Part shown: one piece after another, positions 4,933-23,500 of the stretch | How the letters are laid out: every line of letters starts with the position of its first letter | Numbering within the stretch: the stretch's first letter is position 1 | DNA from: Brevundimonas sp. | Lineage (GTDB): Bacteria > Pseudomonadota > Alphaproteobacteria > Caulobacterales > Caulobacteraceae | Assembly: GCF_018608325.1 (NCBI RefSeq) | Contig: NZ_JABAZW010000013.1 | Location: forward strand, 8,009 to 72,008 | Direction: 5' to 3' | DNA length: 64,000 nt | Notes under the pieces: generated by a model | The model's input: only the letters and a program-made list of their open reading frames with translations | Databases searched by the model: none | Told to the model about the DNA's origin: nothing | Position numbers and translations under genes: made by a program

Positions 4933-5573
4933 GCAAAGCCCGCATAAAGAACGGCAAGCCCAAGATCCGCTCCAAGGGCGGCCGCCCACGCAAGGAAGGC
5001 GCACGCTATCCCTCAGGAGAGCTTCGCCCCGCTGGTCCGAACCCCGAGGTCATCGTCCGCCGCAAGGCCCTATGCGGAGACATCACCATGGCGACGAACC
5101 CCATCGACGTGATGCTGGCCAATCGCTGGATCACGGAGGACCAGCACCGCACCGCCGCGCGCTATCGTCAGGACCATCGATCGGCAGCCCTGTGCGGTCC
5201 GACCGTACCGACCCAGCGCGACCTTTCAGCCCCAGAAGGCGTCGACACCCGCGACCAGTCTTTCGCCACCATGCCCGACAAGGACATCGCCGCCGTATGG
5301 GATAGCGCCATGAGCCGCACGCCGCCTGCCGCGAATGACCAGCACGCCGGTCAGGCCCGCGCGATGGACCGCTACCGTGAGGCCAACCGTATCCTGACCG
5401 TGGCCCAGCGCAACGAGGTCAACGACGTAGTGCTACTCGACAGTTGGCCCCAATGGGTTCTCCAGCGCCGCGCCGGGAACTTCACGTCGTCATGGGAGAG
5501 AAAGCGCGAGCTGTTGATCGACGGCCTGGACTTGATCCAGGAGATCTATGGCCCACGGAGGAAGGCGGCATGA
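4929..5573 (+). CDS. Hypothetical protein, last gene of the early operon (basic N-terminus)
   Basis: From the ORF track, with a coupled start. No domain recognised. Its position fits a late-gene regulator, but nothing else supports that role. Confidence 0.6.
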   Translation: MSKARIKNGKPKIRSKGGRPRKEGARYPSGELRPAGPNPEVIVRRKALCGDITMATNPIDVMLANRWITEDQHRTAARYRQDHRSAALCGPTVPTQRDLSAPEGVDTRDQSFATMPDKDIAAVWDSAMSRTPPAANDQHAGQARAMDRYREANRILTVAQRNEVNDVVLLDSWPQWVLQRRAGNFTSSWERKRELLIDGLDLIQEIYGPRRKAA

Positions 5574-5626
5574 GCAAGGATCTGCGCCCGAGACGCTCCC
5601 CTTGCTCGACCCAGGTCGCCCCTTGA

Positions 5627-5866
5627 TCAAGCCAACTTCTCCAGCGAAGCGTCATACCTCTCACGAGCCACTGCGAGCGTAGCGCGGGCCTGTGTTCTGG
5701 ATGGCTCGTCCAGACTCTGGCGGAAGCCTTCATGAGCGGCGCACAGAGCAGCTAAAGCGCAGTCCCACTCGACAATATCCGGGTCATTGAAGTCGATCAT
5801 CTGCCCGATCCTTCCCTCACATTCTGAGTAGGAACGGCCCAGACTGATAATCCGACCTGCGGCCAA
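5627..5866 (-). CDS. Small hypothetical protein downstream of the XRE gene (alternative start 5800)
   Basis: From the ORF track. The internal ATG at 5800 is preceded by GGGAAGGA and would give a 57-aa product, MIDFNDPDIVEWDCALAALCAAHEGF... Confidence 0.35.
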   Translation of the reverse strand: MAAGRIISLGRSYSECEGRIGQMIDFNDPDIVEWDCALAALCAAHEGFRQSLDEPSRTQARATLAVARERYDASLEKLA

Positions 5867-5890
5867 ACTTCGCGGCAGACCGAAGCGTGC

Positions 5891-6238
5891 CTATGAAGGA
5901 TGCTCCTGCGCAGCCAATGCCTCCACGAGATCGGTAATCGCCTCGCGCTGACTGGCTGGAAGATCACCCCACGCCCTGAGCAACCGCTCAGCGCCAATGA
6001 CCGTGGTCTCTTCGGTGCCGTAAAGCTCTCCAATGCTGCACCGTAGCACCTTGGCTAGAGCAGGCATTTTGTCGGAGGGCACCCGGTTCTTGCCTACAAG
6101 GTATTTCTGCACTTGCTGGAATGAGACCCGCAGGGCGTCGCCAAGCTGGGCCTGGCTCAAACCAAGCTCAGCTCGACGACTGTTTATATTCTCCGCAATT
6201 CGAGTCGTGACTTCCTTATCTTCCGCCATCTCGGCCAT
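5891..6238 (-). CDS. XRE-family HTH transcriptional regulator (repressor-like)
   Basis: HTH_3 signature RIAENINSRRAELGLSQAQLGDALRVSFQQVQKYLVGKNRVPSDKMPALAKVLRCSIGELY. A GGGAG Shine-Dalgarno (SD) lies 6 nt upstream of the ATG. Confidence 0.85.
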   Translation of the reverse strand: MAEMAEDKEVTTRIAENINSRRAELGLSQAQLGDALRVSFQQVQKYLVGKNRVPSDKMPALAKVLRCSIGELYGTEETTVIGAERLLRAWGDLPASQREAITDLVEALAAQEHPS

Positions 6239-6623
6239 GCCGCACTCCCACTGAAACGCTTGATCACAAGGGCGCCCGACTGAAAGCTAACGCAACGGCA
6301 CCCTCAGCGAAATGACGTCTGGTTATTCGAGGCGTTGAAACCCTCCAGATGCGTCAAGGTGATGTGCCGATTGGCTGCAGAAGCCGCGCCAACCTTCTCA
6401 GTCGGAACTATGTAGTCCAGTCACGTAGTCGCATCCGCCTGAGTCTGGCGTAGCACGCCCTCAACAAGCAGCAAGGTTCGCAGACGTAGCAATAATTTAC
6501 AGTTCAGGACGATAATTATTCGCAATCAAGCTTTACTGTATCGCAAAACTCTCTAACGGTTTCGCCGCGCAACTTTAGGGGGCGTGGGGTGAGTGCCGAA
6601 CCTTCATTGGCTGCGGCGCTAGG

Positions 6624-6677
6624 GGCGGCCCGTCTTCCCTCCAAACATGAGGCCGGGCCGCTCTTCCTCTTTTTTCT
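6624..6677 (+). terminator. Terminator-like hairpin with a long loop, in a non-coding region
   Basis: The stem GCGGCCCG (6625-6632) pairs with CGGGCCGC (6654-6661) and can be extended by G-U pairs. It is followed by the pyrimidine/T run CTTCCTCTTTTTTC. Confidence 0.35.
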
Positions 6678-6707
6678 GACCGAGTGAGTGCGGCATTCTT
6701 ACTCAGC

Positions 6708-6732
6708 GAAATACGGCGAGACCCCGTATTTC
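6708..6732. promoter_or_regulatory. Perfect 9-bp inverted repeat GAAATACGG-N7-CCGTATTTC (operator or leader hairpin candidate)
   Basis: Read directly from the sequence, ~70 nt upstream of the ATG at 6804. Confidence 0.3.
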
Positions 6733-6803
6733 TACGTAATCAGAATTCAGAACCAGTTAACCGAGCAAGCGCAGCCTCAACGTGCCAGCCTATGGAGGGA
6801 AAG

Positions 6804-7109
6804 ATGGCGCGTAAGATCGGCTTTGACCAAGCTGTGAAGCTGCTAGGACAAGCGAGACTTCTTCCAGAGGAAGAAGCCCCAGACACTGACGATCTTGAGA
6901 AGATCGTATTGCGCCAAACGCCCATGCACTGGGAACAGGCGGCCACCATTCTCGACGAAGTTGCGTACAATATGCAGGCAGGCGCCAGGTGCGACGGCTT
7001 GGACATCGCTGCTGTAAACCGCATCGGGTTCTGGCTACGTCAGCTTGACGTTGATGAGCGCATCAAGACCGCGACCTCTGTTCACGCCGCACGCAACAAA
7101 GCTGCTTGA
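6804..7109 (+). CDS. Hypothetical acidic protein (101 aa)
   Basis: The ATG at 6804 is preceded by GGAGGGA (6795-6801). The ORF-track start at 6684 lacks an SD. An intrinsic terminator follows the gene. Confidence 0.55.
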   Translation: MARKIGFDQAVKLLGQARLLPEEEAPDTDDLEKIVLRQTPMHWEQAATILDEVAYNMQAGARCDGLDIAAVNRIGFWLRQLDVDERIKTATSVHAARNKAA

Positions 7110-7146
7110 CGGCGAATCCGAACCAGCCAATAATTCGGCAAATGAA

Positions 7147-7178
7147 AGCCTCGGAGTTTTGCGCTCCGGGGCTTTTTC
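7147..7178 (+). terminator. Intrinsic terminator
   Basis: AGCCTCGGAG-TTTTGCG-CTCCGGGGCT followed by a T run. Confidence 0.7.
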
Positions 7179-7301
7179 GTGCCCGACGCACACGCCAACC
7201 TGCGACATTCCGTCAATCGGGCAACCATCTCCCTGCGTTGACTCCAGCGTGTAGACAAGACGATCCTCAGTTGCCCCAATCAGAGGGCTCAGGAGGATGA
7301 T

Positions 7302-7598
7302 TTGTTCAACGCCAAGCGAATTGCCGTAGGTTTGTCTTCTCTATCCATTCTTGCTGCTGCCGTTGCAGTAGCAGCTACCGCGCCCGCTCAACCCGCAGCG
7401 GCTGCCGGTCAGAGCTCCTTCCGGATCTACGAGTTCACCTACTACTCGGATGCAAATCATTCGACCGTCGTTGGATATGCCCGGCAGGCTTGCTCGCCAA
7501 ATGATCCCGGCTTCCAACAGTGGGGAACGGTGACGCAGTACGTCGTGTCCAATCCAATAGGCTACTGCAGCCCTGATGATGGCGGTGTGATCCACTAA
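7302..7598 (+). CDS. Small secreted 2-Cys protein, paralogue family member 1
   Basis: TTG start 5 nt after AGGAGGA. The signal peptide is MFNAKRIAVGLSSLSILAAAVAVAATAPA. The mature part shares the FTYYSDA..VG..C..G..T..C pattern with 7662-7904 and 32850-33107. Confidence 0.6.
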   Translation: MFNAKRIAVGLSSLSILAAAVAVAATAPAQPAAAAGQSSFRIYEFTYYSDANHSTVVGYARQACSPNDPGFQQWGTVTQYVVSNPIGYCSPDDGGVIH

Positions 7599-7621
7599 GC
7601 TTCGGCTGACGAATAGCTGGA

Positions 7622-8771: not shown

Positions 8772-9170
8772 ATGCCCGCTCTCTCCAACCCCAAGCATGA
8801 GCGGTTCGCTCAGGCCTTGGCCAAGGGCAAAAGCCAAGCCGAGGCCTACGCTGACGCTGGCTACAAGCCCAGCGAGCCGAACGCGTCTCGCCTGACAAGT
8901 AATGACAAGGTGCAGGCGCGCCTCTCAGAGCTTCAGGAACGCGCCGCAACTCGCACCGAGATCACGGTCGCCAGTATCACTGAACGCCTGCTCGCCATCG
9001 CCACCAAGGCTGAGAAAAGCCGGGAGGCTCCGATGCTTCAGGCCGCACGAGCCAGCCTCATGGACGCTGCGAAGCTGAATGGCCTCGTCGTCGACAAGTC
9101 ATCGATCGACGCCCGGGTTACAACGCCCAAGACGCTGAACGACTTCTATGGCGGCGAGAGCGACGCTTAA
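8772..9170 (+). CDS. Terminase small subunit
   Basis: N-terminal HTH typical of Terminase_2-type TerS (NPKHERFAQALAKGKSQAEAYADAGYKPS..NASRL). It sits immediately upstream of, and overlaps, the large terminase gene. Confidence 0.8.
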   Translation: MPALSNPKHERFAQALAKGKSQAEAYADAGYKPSEPNASRLTSNDKVQARLSELQERAATRTEITVASITERLLAIATKAEKSREAPMLQAARASLMDAAKLNGLVVDKSSIDARVTTPKTLNDFYGGESDA

Positions 9171-20550: not shown

Positions 20551-20578
20551 AGGCTCGCTTCGGCGGGCCTTTTTCTTT
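20551..20578 (+). terminator. Intrinsic terminator (UUCG tetraloop), copy 1 of a duplicated hairpin
   Basis: AGGCTCGC-TTCG-GCGGGCCT followed by TTTTCTTT. It ends 10 nt before the tape measure ATG. Confidence 0.7.
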
Positions 20579-20588
20579 GGAGGTCACC

Positions 20589-23500
20589 ATGGGTGATCTG
20601 GCAGTCCTTGGCCTTCGCATCGAGAGCCAAGAGGTTGAAGCGGCGAACCGTCGCCTCGACAGCTTCACGAGCTCGGCAGACGGCGCCCAAAGGGCAACCG
20701 ATCTCTTGGGAACAGGATCGGACAAAGCTCACAGCGCGATTGCGCAGTTGATGGCCTCCATCGATCGCACCACCAAGGAAATGCTGGAGCTCCAGCGGGC
20801 CCAGCGACTGGCCACCGGGGCAGCAGCGGATCAAACGGGTGCGACCGCTGCTCTGACCAAGGCGACAGCCGACCTCAACGCCCAGATGGCCCAAGCATCA
20901 ACCTCGCACCTGCGGTTCGGCTCTTCGTTCAAGACGACGCAGGATGGGATGGGGGGCGCTGCCGCTGCAGCCGGGAACTTCGGCAACGCCATCGAACAAG
21001 CCGACGCTCATGTTGCAGCGTACCTAGCCAGCATGGCCTCGGGGGACAAAACCCACAAGTCCGCCGCTAAGTCCCAGGCTGAAGTCACCAAAGGAGCGAA
21101 AGACCTCGGAGCGGCTCTTGGCCGAATGGCCGGTGACGCCGTGACGGGGCGAGCATCACTAGATGGCCTGGCCACCAATGGTGAGCGCGCTGGTCGGGCG
21201 CTATGGAGCATGGGTGGACGCGCCGCTCTGCTTGGCGGAATTCTGACCGGCGTAATCGTTACAGTAGGATTGCTCGCCAAAGCATTCCGCGATGGCGAAC
21301 GAGACTCCAATAAGTTCGCCAATGCCATTGCCATCACAGGCAACTACGCCGGCATCACCACGGCCCAGTACGAGACCATGGTGAAGGCTGTGCAGGGCGG
21401 CGCAAACAGCGGATTTGGTACGGCTAGGCAGACTCTTTTGGGGTTGGTTTCAACTGGCAAGTTCACCAGCGAGACGATTCAATACCTCAGCCAGGACATC
21501 ATCAAACTCGCGCGCTTCACAGGCCAGTCAACGACCCAAATGTCCGGCTATTTTGCTGAAATGGGCGACAAGGTCGGAGACTTCGCCGTAAAATTTAACA
21601 GCAGCTACCACATGCTCACGCTGGCACAGATTGAGCACATCCAGTTGCTCGAAAGCCAGGGCAAGACGACAGAGGCGCGGCTTGAACTGGCTATCGCCAT
21701 TCACAAGAGGCTCGGTGAGATCGGCCCCGAGAATCTTGGCTATCTTGAGCGGGCCTGGAGAGGCGTAGGCAGCGCGATTTCGTGGGCCTGGGAGCAACTA
21801 AAGGGCTTCGGTCGTGATTCTGGGATTGAAGCTCAAATTGACCGGATAAACGGGGCTCTCGCTGCAAACGAAAAGAAGATCGGCGTTTCGCCTGCTTTTA
21901 CCCAGAGGCTATTAGCCGAGAGGGCCGCGCTGCAGGCAACACTGGACCAAAACAAAGCCGCCAGCGACACGGCCCGCGTCCAGCAGGAGGGCGTTGACGC
22001 AGCGGAGCGCCTACGGACGACTTGGGCCGGCATGGGCGACAACGTCGCTCGGGCGCGCACTGAAATCGCCAAGTACCGCGCTGACATTGATGCCGTCCGG
22101 CAAGCCAATCCCAACAGCCACAACATTCCGTCTGCCGCTCAACAGGCGGCAGCTGAAGCGGCGATCATGAAGAAATACACCCCCGAAGCCACCGCGGCGG
22201 CAAACAGGGCAGCTAGCGCCGCCCGAAGCGCTGCTGCTGCGGCAGAGCGTCGAGCTGAGTCCTTGGCGCGCGAACTAGAAGGAATGAGGCAGACCGCACG
22301 GGCCAACCATGATCTTGCCGCAGCCTATGGCGTTTCCGATGTCGAGGCGCTGAAGGCTGCTGCTTCAGCAGAGGCAGTAGGCCGTGCCATCAGGCGCCAG
22401 GGAGAGGTCTCGGCCTTTGTGGCGGCCCAGCTTGAGTTGAACGCCTCCAAGCTGGCGGCATCATCGGCGCAACAGGCATCAGATCTTCGGTTCGCCGCCG
22501 AGGGCCAGGAGCGCATGAACGCGGCAGTCGCCGCTGGTACGACCACGACGCAGGAAGCCACTGAGCTACTTTCTCTGGAGGCGCACCTACGCCCGTTGAT
22601 AGCGGCTGCTGCTGCCGTCGAGGGAGGTGCCAAGGCCGACCTGCTCCGCCAGATCGAGGCTGTAACGGCCGCGACGAAGCGGATGAATGCTGCGACGCGC
22701 GAAGCGTCGATCATCCAGGCTCAAACCAACAACCGCGACCGCCTCACCGTCCTGCAGTTGGAACGAGACCTCGTCGGCGCCAATAACATCGAGCGCGCCC
22801 GCCAACTAGCGATGCTGGAAGAAGAAATCCGGCTCAGGAACCAATACGGCAAGGACTTCATCAACTCGTCGAAAGGCCAAGGCCTGATCAACGATGCGGG
22901 CAACAACGCCGCATTCGGAGAGCAGACCCAGCGTGACGTGGCTCGGTATAATCTCGCCCTGGTGGAGCAACTCGATCTGCTGCGCCAGATCGACGACCAG
23001 ACCCGCAGCGCCGCTCAGGGCATGGCCGATTCCTTCGGCAGCGCAGGGCGAGCTGTAGGAGATTTGGCCGTCTCGATGACCTCCTACCAATCACGGCTAG
23101 AGGAAATCCGGGTCGCCCGTGAACAGATGTCGCGCGAAGGCACGCTGAACAGCCAGCGCGAGGCGATGTTCGCCCGCGACGCAGCGCAAGCCCAGATTCA
23201 GTCCTACGGCGACATGATGGGCGCGGCGAAAGGCTTCTTCCGAGAAGGCTCCGATGGATTCAAAATCCTGCAGGCCGCCGAGCAGGGCTACCGCATCTTC
23301 CAGTTCGCAATGGCCCTGCAATCCATGGCGCTCACCGGACAAGAGACCGCCTTCACCGTAGGGCAGAACCTGATCCGGTCGGCCAGCCACGGGGTTGTCG
23401 CTGTTGCTCGTGCACTGGCCTCCCTTCCCTTCCCGCTGAACCTCGCCGCTGGCGCCGCAACCGTCGCCGCTCTGGCGGCCATCGGCGTCAAGATCGCGGG

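Follow-up and report, generated by a model that had tools for sequence, protein, structure and literature searches.

A probable structured RNA in a Brevundimonas mobile module, with a hairpin apex complementary to the ribosome-binding site of the neighboring orphan gene

The DNA considered here lies at positions 6239-6803 of a 64,000-nt stretch of a Brevundimonas sp. genome (contig NZ_JABAZW010000013.1; the whole stretch is called the window below), immediately upstream of a 101-aa orphan open reading frame (ORF) that starts at 6804. A structured RNA very probably exists in this region: positions ~6565-6677 of the plus strand look like a small RNA (sRNA) gene of ~110 nt with three hairpins and putative ends, the last hairpin being terminator-like and carrying at its apex a sequence complementary to the Shine-Dalgarno (SD) region of the ORF. 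The explanation preferred here is that this terminator-hairpin sRNA of ~110 nt belongs to a mobile module together with the ORF, has paralogues in the host chromosome, and pairs with the SD of the ORF; the statement as a whole is put forward tentatively. Its elements are:

6532-6557, plus strand: putative promoter of the RNA, -35-like TTTACT (6532-6537) and -10-like TCTAAC (6552-6557), by likeness to consensus.
6565-6587, plus strand: hairpin 0 (H0), stem CCGCGC/GCGUGG, from the RNAalifold consensus.
6592-6620, plus strand: hairpin 1 (H1), stem GUGCCG (6593-6598)/CGGCGC (6614-6619), loop AACCUUCAUUGGCUG (6599-6613), from fold and consensus.
6622-6664, plus strand: hairpin 2 (H2), the terminator hairpin, outer stem 6622-6632/6654-6664, loop CCUCCAAACAU (6638-6648), from fold and covariation.
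6665-6677, plus strand: C/U-rich tail with U6, by direct reading; likely 3' end of the RNA.
6746-6781, plus strand: conserved block upstream of the ORF, TTCA-N7-TTAAC (6746-6761) and GCCTCAAC (6774-6781), from alignment.
6783-6803, plus strand: near-invariant SD box GTGCCAGCCTATGGAGGGAAAG, 86-100% identity across homologues.
6804-7109, plus strand: 101-aa orphan ORF, all-helical, with an invariant C-terminal Ala-Ala; 11 close homologues.
7147-7177, plus strand: intrinsic terminator after the ORF and right edge of the module, AGCCTCGGAG/CTCCGGGGCT followed by T5, by reading; conserved in B. nasdae (G208).

The window was read directly over 5400-7600, and the contigs of the eleven close homologues of the 101-aa protein were fetched and their upstream regions aligned. 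Nine homologous sequences of 6560-6680 gave an RNAalifold consensus with the three hairpins, in which 96.3% of cells pair; sliding the 3' partners by 1-3 columns lowers this to 36-50%. At five pairs both sides have changed in compensation, and the covariation score was matched by none of 500 shuffles. Covariation of the hairpin in relatives had been named in a preliminary description of this DNA as a check, and compensatory changes are present in all three hairpins, H2 included. The changes in H0 are from G-U to G-C at pair 10-28 and, in four sequences, double changes from U-G to A-U at pair 17-21; H2 has double compensatory changes at pairs 69-105 (GC to AU), 75-99 (CG to UA) and 81-93 (CG to UA, in L040), the last falling in its inner stem and the other two in its outer stem.

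The GC-rich hairpin had been described correctly: GCGGCCCG (6625-6632) is perfectly paired with CGGGCCGC (6654-6661), and the stem extends outward to 6622/6664. Inside it a second stem of 4 bp is predicted, CUUC (6634-6637) with GAGG (6649-6652), which also shows compensatory changes in homologues; the minimum free energy fold of H2 has z = -3.3, and its loop CCUCCAAA is invariant among homologues and unpaired in all folds. The terminator-like character seen earlier likewise holds, with 11 outer and 4 inner bp followed directly by CUCUUCCUCUUUUUUCU, and so does the pyrimidine run, a C/T-rich tail CTCTTCCTCTTTTTTCT with six consecutive T that ends at 6677, the likely 3' end of the RNA. A simple terminator scan did not call H2, because its criteria admit only loops of 3-8 nt. 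The T-run is found in four of the nine homologous sequences (window, L038, L039, L040) and is weak or absent in L044, L048, L051, L053 and L055; the documented terminator of Caulobacter GsrN has a comparable C/U-mixed tail (PMC5869019, supplement file 12).

As to how the RNA might be transcribed, the pair TTTACT/TCTAAC may be a Caulobacter-type sigma-73 promoter. The Caulobacter sigma-73 consensus is TTGACGS-N10-14-GCTANAWC, and the -10-like element reads CTATAA in L039 and L040; a simple sigma-70 scan did not call a promoter at 6532-6557. The 5' end would be placed near 6565, possibly as far upstream as ~6524. Conservation is uneven across the region: in homologues whose third codon positions are merely 48-58% identical to the window, identity to the window is 83-91% in a 47-nt block upstream of H0 (6516-6562), 77-86% in the RNA segment, 86-100% in the SD-box segment (22 nt before the ATG), and 62-68% in the spacer between H2 and the SD box, the least conserved segment.

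The 9-nt match is exact, as first noticed: TTCCCTCCA (6635-6643), when reverse-complemented, gives TGGAGGGAA (6793-6801), which shortly precedes the ATG at 6804. Its placement in the hairpin loop holds for six of its bases, the loop being CCUCCAAACAU (6638-6648); the first three are inner-stem bases. Written as RNA, the anti-SD element is the H2 9-mer UUCCCUCCA and its counterpart at 6793-6801 is UGGAGGGAA; AGCC..UGGAGG (6788-6799) is in addition partly complementary to the H1 loop. Is such a match to be expected by chance? At least nine contiguous bases complementary to the 21-nt apical part of H2 occur in 8 of 3055 crude SD-bearing initiation regions of the genome (0.26%), the adjacent ORF included, and the match exceeds chance modestly; ranked by duplex energy with a 16-nt apical region, the site stands 131st genome-wide. 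The energetics of pairing are favorable: the duplex of 9-mer and SD is worth -14.8 kcal/mol, compared with -10.4 kcal/mol for the generic 16S anti-SD on the same site, and opening costs are ~+4.1 kcal/mol for the 9-mer in the RNA, ~+1 kcal/mol for the SD and 0.2 kcal/mol for the 6-nt loop. The SD box itself has a core, GTGCCAGyCTATGGAGGGA, that is invariant in 10 contexts, including one from which the RNA is missing (L054); these ~19 nt around the SD are more than an SD alone needs. At least eight of the nine positions are still complementary in every homologue save L040, which has one G-U wobble, and L101.

Assuming the RNA is made, the H2 apex would pair with UGGAGGGAA at the ribosome-binding site of the ORF, six loop bases pairing first and three more once the weak 4-bp inner stem opens. 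If this pairing takes place in vivo, its sign would presumably be negative, keeping translation of the ORF low in the lysogen. The same seed may also act in trans on other strong GGAGG-type sites, possibly in host mRNAs, and a chromosomal copy of the RNA could in principle act on the ORF as well.

Several observations weigh against this mechanism. With three of the nine bases bound in the stem, the true 11-nt loop alone makes an ordinary 6-bp SD match that ranks ~1032nd genome-wide. Loop and SD are both invariant and never covary. Each is equally conserved without the other: the loop in chromosomal copies that lack such an ORF, the SD box in L054, where the RNA is absent. The C-to-U change within the 9-mer of L040 is compensated inside the hairpin and not in the SD, while a metagenomic variant, L101, has the SD TGAAGGGAA with an unchanged loop, an uncompensated SD change. 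About half of the homologues lack the U-tract, which would allow read-through into the ORF, and upstream of the ORF's more distant relatives in G066 no such RNA occurs. Of the three readings first offered for the region, an sRNA with its 3' end near 6677 and the 6804 mRNA as its target nevertheless comes out as the best supported: the RNA itself is backed by covarying hairpins, paralogues and a promoter-like block, whereas its action on the SD is plausible and no firmer than the preferred explanation as a whole.

The H1 loop was also considered as a second seed (11 of 13 window positions complement AGCCUAUGGAGGG) and was set aside, as the center of the loop varies among homologues and the mRNA stays constant.

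The linkage of RNA and ORF is close. The RNA stands upstream of the ORF at the same distance and in the same orientation in nine of ten distinct ORF contexts, whether or not an XRE-family repressor-like gene lies next to it, as one does in the window. Homology to the window begins at ~6490 and continues through the ORF to the terminator at 7147-7177, also in B. nasdae (G208/L036), L044 and L053, where there is no upstream XRE gene. Judging from these alignments, the conserved upstream block (6489-6562), the RNA gene and the ORF with its terminator make up one mobile module of ~6490-7180. Brevundimonas prophages and integrative islands carry it as cargo, close to integrases or in between phage modules. 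The RNA family is new and narrow, limited to a few Brevundimonas genomes and assemblies. Rfam has no family at gathering score in the window, and at the chromosomal loci of the paralogues its only real matches are to tRNA-Leu; a blastn comparison of the region with GenBank phages produced no match; a pattern scan of IMG/VR gave 19 matches, all due to chance, and one of 185,579 species-representative genomes gave 40, of which just two are real, both in B. nasdae JCM 11415; scans with two models (R1 and R2), each covering 400 genomes in 27 genera of the family, picked up this genome alone. To our knowledge, very few phage-borne regulatory RNAs have been described in Alphaproteobacteria, and this would add to them a family absent from Rfam. 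With sRNA gene and candidate target traveling as one unit, and paralogues in the host, the module also lends itself naturally to asking how sRNA seeds are taken up or given away by mobile elements.

The same linkage admits another possibility, a long leader, which was likewise among the readings first offered: the 6804 mRNA would carry the structured RNA as its 5' leader. H2 would then be an attenuator, or the RNA a stable processed 5' fragment like P1 c4 and P4 CI, and on read-through the loop would "kiss" the SD in cis. This fits the shared orientation and fixed spacing of RNA and ORF in nine contexts, the U-tract that is weak or absent in the five homologues named above, and the lack of any consensus promoter call from 6678 to 6803. 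In nested folds of the whole leader neither loop nor SD is paired, and a loop-SD kiss would be the only way to sequester the SD; such a pairing is a pseudoknot and beyond the folding method used. On the other hand, L054, which has lost the RNA, retains just the last ~65 nt upstream of the ATG, with the conserved TT(C/T)A-N7-TTAAC and GCCTCAAC-like blocks; these resemble -35 and -10 elements and argue that the ORF has its own promoter. The block at 6746-6781, conserved in all homologues, L054 included, is the candidate for such a promoter, with a motif that is possibly CtrA-box-like (the CtrA-box consensus being TTAA-N7-TTAAC). A leader is further disfavored by the strong terminator with U5-U6 in the window and its closest relatives, by the poor conservation (62-68%) of the stretch that joins RNA and SD box, and by the paralogous chromosomal RNAs, which are not leaders of any homologous ORF. 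It is regarded as unlikely, if still worth serious consideration.

Those paralogues came to light in a search of the same genome, in which contig C57 turned out to carry a copy of 6596-6661 with 76% identity (copy A). Its H1 box CCGAACCTTCATTGGCT and its loop TTCCCTCCAAA are identical to those of the window, and its stem is compensated, CCCG/CGGG having become CCTG/CAGG. Copy A folds into three hairpins, the first of which differs from that of the window and has a C7 loop, UCCCCCCCGAC, on a covarying stem. The full 9-mer UUCCCUCCA is present; folds disagree on its exposure, the 106-nt fold pairing its two leading Us in a short inner stem. Run on 200 genomes of the genus, a covariance model built from the window and C57 copies recovered the module of B. 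nasdae and copies of chromosomal type in G208 and G175, as well as a weaker match in G034; on C57 it detected another copy (copy B), more diverged and 400 nt further downstream. The paralogues at C57:24671-24752 and C57:25143-25216, and those in two other Brevundimonas genomes, adjoin a tRNA-Leu gene and lack the 101-aa ORF; preserved in them are the loop UUCCCUCCAAA, the H1 box and a covarying stem. Synteny at this locus extends over three species, the order being Hsp70-like gene (opposite strand), copy A, a 56-aa ORF, copy B (absent in G175) and tRNA-Leu.

This sRNA-like chromosomal locus spans C57:24600-25230 in the present genome, G000 (L023 1430-2060), and is also represented by L024 (minus strand) and L025; its 56-aa orphan ORF is conserved. 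The H1 box recurs in a third kind of element, as GTTCCGAACCTTCATTGGCTCCGGGG, in other Brevundimonas genomes (L027 1501-1579, L028, L029, L031-L034), where it sits inside a long terminator-like stem, AAAACGGCC...GGCCGTTTT, at a chromosomal site that is syntenic in several species and has no Rfam match. A fuzzy search of the present genome for the H1 box returned noise alone. Possibly the box serves these elements as a common module for binding protein or RNA.

Given such paralogues, the RNA could instead be a trans-acting regulator of host mRNAs, as the chromosomal paralogue may be, the match to the neighboring SD being incidental, a CCUCC loop meeting a GGAGGG SD. Both loops are indeed conserved in chromosomal copies without the ORF, and the SD box in L054 without the RNA; loop and SD do not covary, and the SD variant of L101 is uncompensated. 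Better or equal matches also occur at other initiation regions, one of 11 nt before a 905-aa ORF whose N-terminus, judged by eye, resembles that of a TonB-dependent receptor, and another before a 397-aa membrane protein. Pulling the other way are the tight linkage of RNA and ORF in nine of ten contexts with different flanks, the prior chance of only 0.26% that a neighbor's initiation region would reach 9 nt, and an SD box conserved far past what an SD needs (~19 invariant nt). A role in trans alone is judged quite improbable.

A related idea is that the prophage RNA is a xenologue of the host chromosomal sRNA, with both seed loops, which would wire the 101-aa gene into the host sRNA regulon. 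This is rather doubtful. If it were true, resident copies in the host or in a prophage could silence the incoming gene, so that the mobile gene is "tamed" or met by an immunity based on RNA; in lysogens, the prophage copy might also reprogram the host sRNA's own targets.

Among genome-wide matches to the RNA loop, two of the top duplex "targets" by energy, at C90 and C40, were rejected: they are repeat hairpins and not ribosome-binding sites. The repeat, CCCCTCCC-TTGTCAGC-TTTGGAGGGAGGGG, occurs at at least two loci (G000 C90:19870-19915 and C40:4315-4360) and makes a false "best target". Within the prophage, the ribosome-binding site of a 1066-aa ORF (window 20561-20591, C108:28569-28599) reads CTTTGGAGGT, of which 8 bases complement the truly unpaired loop CCUCCAAA; this may be chance, ~0.9% of initiation regions reaching 8 nt.

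The 101-aa protein has no match in Pfam, PHROG, NCBIfam or PADLOC. Its AF2 model has four helices (pLDDT 88.5) and no Foldseek fold match in PDB or BFVD; the protein is hydrophilic and has no membrane segment. A profile search of 1.8 billion proteins found 48 remote and equally unannotated relatives of 62-150 aa (mostly 77-107 aa), which share a motif ending RSDG.D..AL....WL. The C-terminal Ala-Ala is present in all 11 close homologues, in two remote ones (P0017 and P0018) and in both distant copies in G066, each of which follows a membrane-protein gene. ClpXP degrons such as the ssrA tag and that of CtrA provide a precedent for such a C-terminus; by this precedent and the conserved Ala-Ala, the ORF product is probably unstable, its C-terminus resembling a ClpXP degron. 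An orphan partner of this kind, under a possible RNA brake and probable proteolysis, suggests a switch-like regulator. The wider helical family comprises homologues P0001-P0059, among which the C-terminal Ala-Ala is very frequent.

In layout, the closest known system appears to be the c4 RNA of phages P1 and P7 (immI operon; Rfam C4, RF01695), with the analogous CI RNA of P4: these too are small structured RNAs of temperate phages, located upstream of and co-oriented with their target. c4 represses synthesis from the gene downstream of it by exposed loops that complement that gene's ribosome-binding region; here UUCCCUCCA complements UGGAGGGAA, and repression is proposed. c4 is processed from an operon precursor by RNase P to an RNA of ~77 nt, and this processing and the a2 and b2 sites were reportedly described by Citron and Schuster in 1992. 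Unlike c4, the present RNA is in an alphaproteobacterial host, precedes an ORF without similarity to Icd or Ant, has chromosomal paralogues and carries its seed in a terminator hairpin; the C4 covariance model (RF01695) had no match in 6100-6950, even at E<=10.

In the chemistry of its seed, the RNA is more reminiscent of sRNAs that occlude the SD with a C-rich loop (hairpins 13 and 14 of Staphylococcus aureus RNAIII, RsaE, and the alphaproteobacterial CcsR/cuckoo and AbcR RNAs), which likewise have a CCUCC/UCCC motif in a hairpin loop, in RNAIII also in the terminator hairpin. In these sRNAs the motif is a mimic of the anti-SD of 16S rRNA and base-pairs with ribosome-binding sites of the GGAGG type. 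Unlike CcsR, the present RNA has no association with a DUF1127 gene and no CCUCCUCCC repeats; it matches no Rfam family, and unlike all of these sRNAs it rides a mobile module physically linked to its candidate target. By these comparisons it resembles P1 c4 in layout and RNAIII, RsaE and the CcsR type in seed chemistry, and belongs to none of these families; current understanding is not overturned, the proposed mechanism being of a familiar kind and the RNA family new. Exposed C-rich motifs and G-rich target sites recur across several sRNA systems (PMC5869019).

Caulobacter GsrN, from the same bacterial family, is similar in length (~100-110 nt), in its C-rich recognition loop and in the C/U-mixed tail of its terminator, and the C7 loop of the first hairpin in chromosomal copy A contains CCCCCCGAC. 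Identity with GsrN was rejected: blastn with C. crescentus gsrN (PMC5869019 supplement) matches C79:5341-5452 (E about 1e-13 to 6e-17), and neither the window nor C57. No sigma-EcfG promoter (GGAAC-N16-CGTT) was seen by eye in 6480-6565 or upstream of copy A. The C79 site of G000 (5341-5452, minus strand) is itself an apparent GsrN homologue, with 74% identity over 116 aligned columns and similarity that extends into the promoter.

Type I toxin-antitoxin pairs with adjacent, non-overlapping sRNAs (tisB/istR-1, zorO/orzO, and ralR/ralA in the rac prophage) share with the module the position of an sRNA beside a small-protein gene on a mobile element, and a short complementarity at or near the translation start, here of just 9 nt. 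Unlike type I toxins, which are small and usually hydrophobic, the 101-aa product is hydrophilic and helical, with no membrane segment and no known toxin fold, and the invariant Ala-Ala at its C-terminus speaks for instability and against a stable toxin.

The gene context of the module in the window is that of a prophage, with a DnaA-domain-IV-like gene upstream and small and large terminase genes at 8772 and 9148. Between the neighboring XRE gene and the hairpins, and again beyond them, the non-coding DNA has further features:

5891-6238, minus strand: divergent XRE/HTH_3 repressor-like gene, 115 aa (Pfam HTH_3, E=4e-10).
6239-6488, no strand assigned: XRE-proximal spacer, weakly conserved in alignment with homologues.
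6489-6523, no strand assigned: imperfect inverted repeat at the left edge of the module, TTGCAwTAATT ... AATTATTCGCAA, both arms present in all module copies.
6708-6732, no strand assigned: perfect 9-bp inverted repeat GAAATACGG/CCGTATTTC, lineage-specific.

Direct reading confirmed both inverted repeats of the preliminary description, the imperfect one with GCAATAATT at 6489-6497 and AATTATTCGC at 6514-6523, and the perfect one with GAAATACGG at 6708-6716 and CCGTATTTC at 6724-6732. The latter is present in the window and L038 and broken in L040, L044, L048, L051 and L053. That the region contains only very short ORFs was also borne out, conserved ORFs being absent; the coding potential of a 32-codon frame at 6589-6687 was rejected, as 1-nt indels in homologues break the frame.

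The XRE product falls in PHROG transcriptional repressor families, with weak NCBIfam matches of the RstR/DicA type. Its gene is upstream of the module in L038, L039, L040 and L048, and there is none in L044, L051/G208 or L053; it is thus a neighbor of the module in some contexts and lies outside the module proper. The spacer at 6239-6488 aligns well only with the closest XRE-bearing homologues (L038 and L040), decays in L039 and L048, and is missing from module copies without the XRE gene: it appears to go with that gene, whose promoter or leader it probably holds, and to be separate from the mobile module of ~6490-7180. An operator/promoter region shared with the XRE gene, another of the readings first offered, can therefore apply at most to 6239-6488, since the module from ~6490 rightwards also occurs without the gene: G208, L044 and L053, in which no divergent XRE gene is adjacent, conserve the repeat at 6489-6523 together with all that follows on its right. 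Both arms of this repeat being kept there as well, it is a candidate operator or UP-like element.

A last alternative would do without any functional RNA, the region serving the ORF and the divergent XRE gene as promoter and operator DNA and H2 being no more than a terminator or insulator. The presence of the divergent XRE gene, the conserved inverted repeat at 6489-6523, and the fact that the most conserved non-coding segment is the DNA upstream of the hairpins are all in keeping with it. Yet the compensatory changes in all three hairpins imply selection on RNA pairing, the module occurs without the XRE gene, nothing upstream on the plus strand is there for H2 to terminate, and paralogous hairpins elsewhere in the genome keep the loop sequences; this alternative is considered very improbable.

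Downstream of the XRE gene, at 5627-5866 (minus strand), is a small ORF with no family match. A 57-aa gene is called at the same position in L038, L039, L040 and L043, and in L040 a HEPN-domain gene stands beside this pair of genes.

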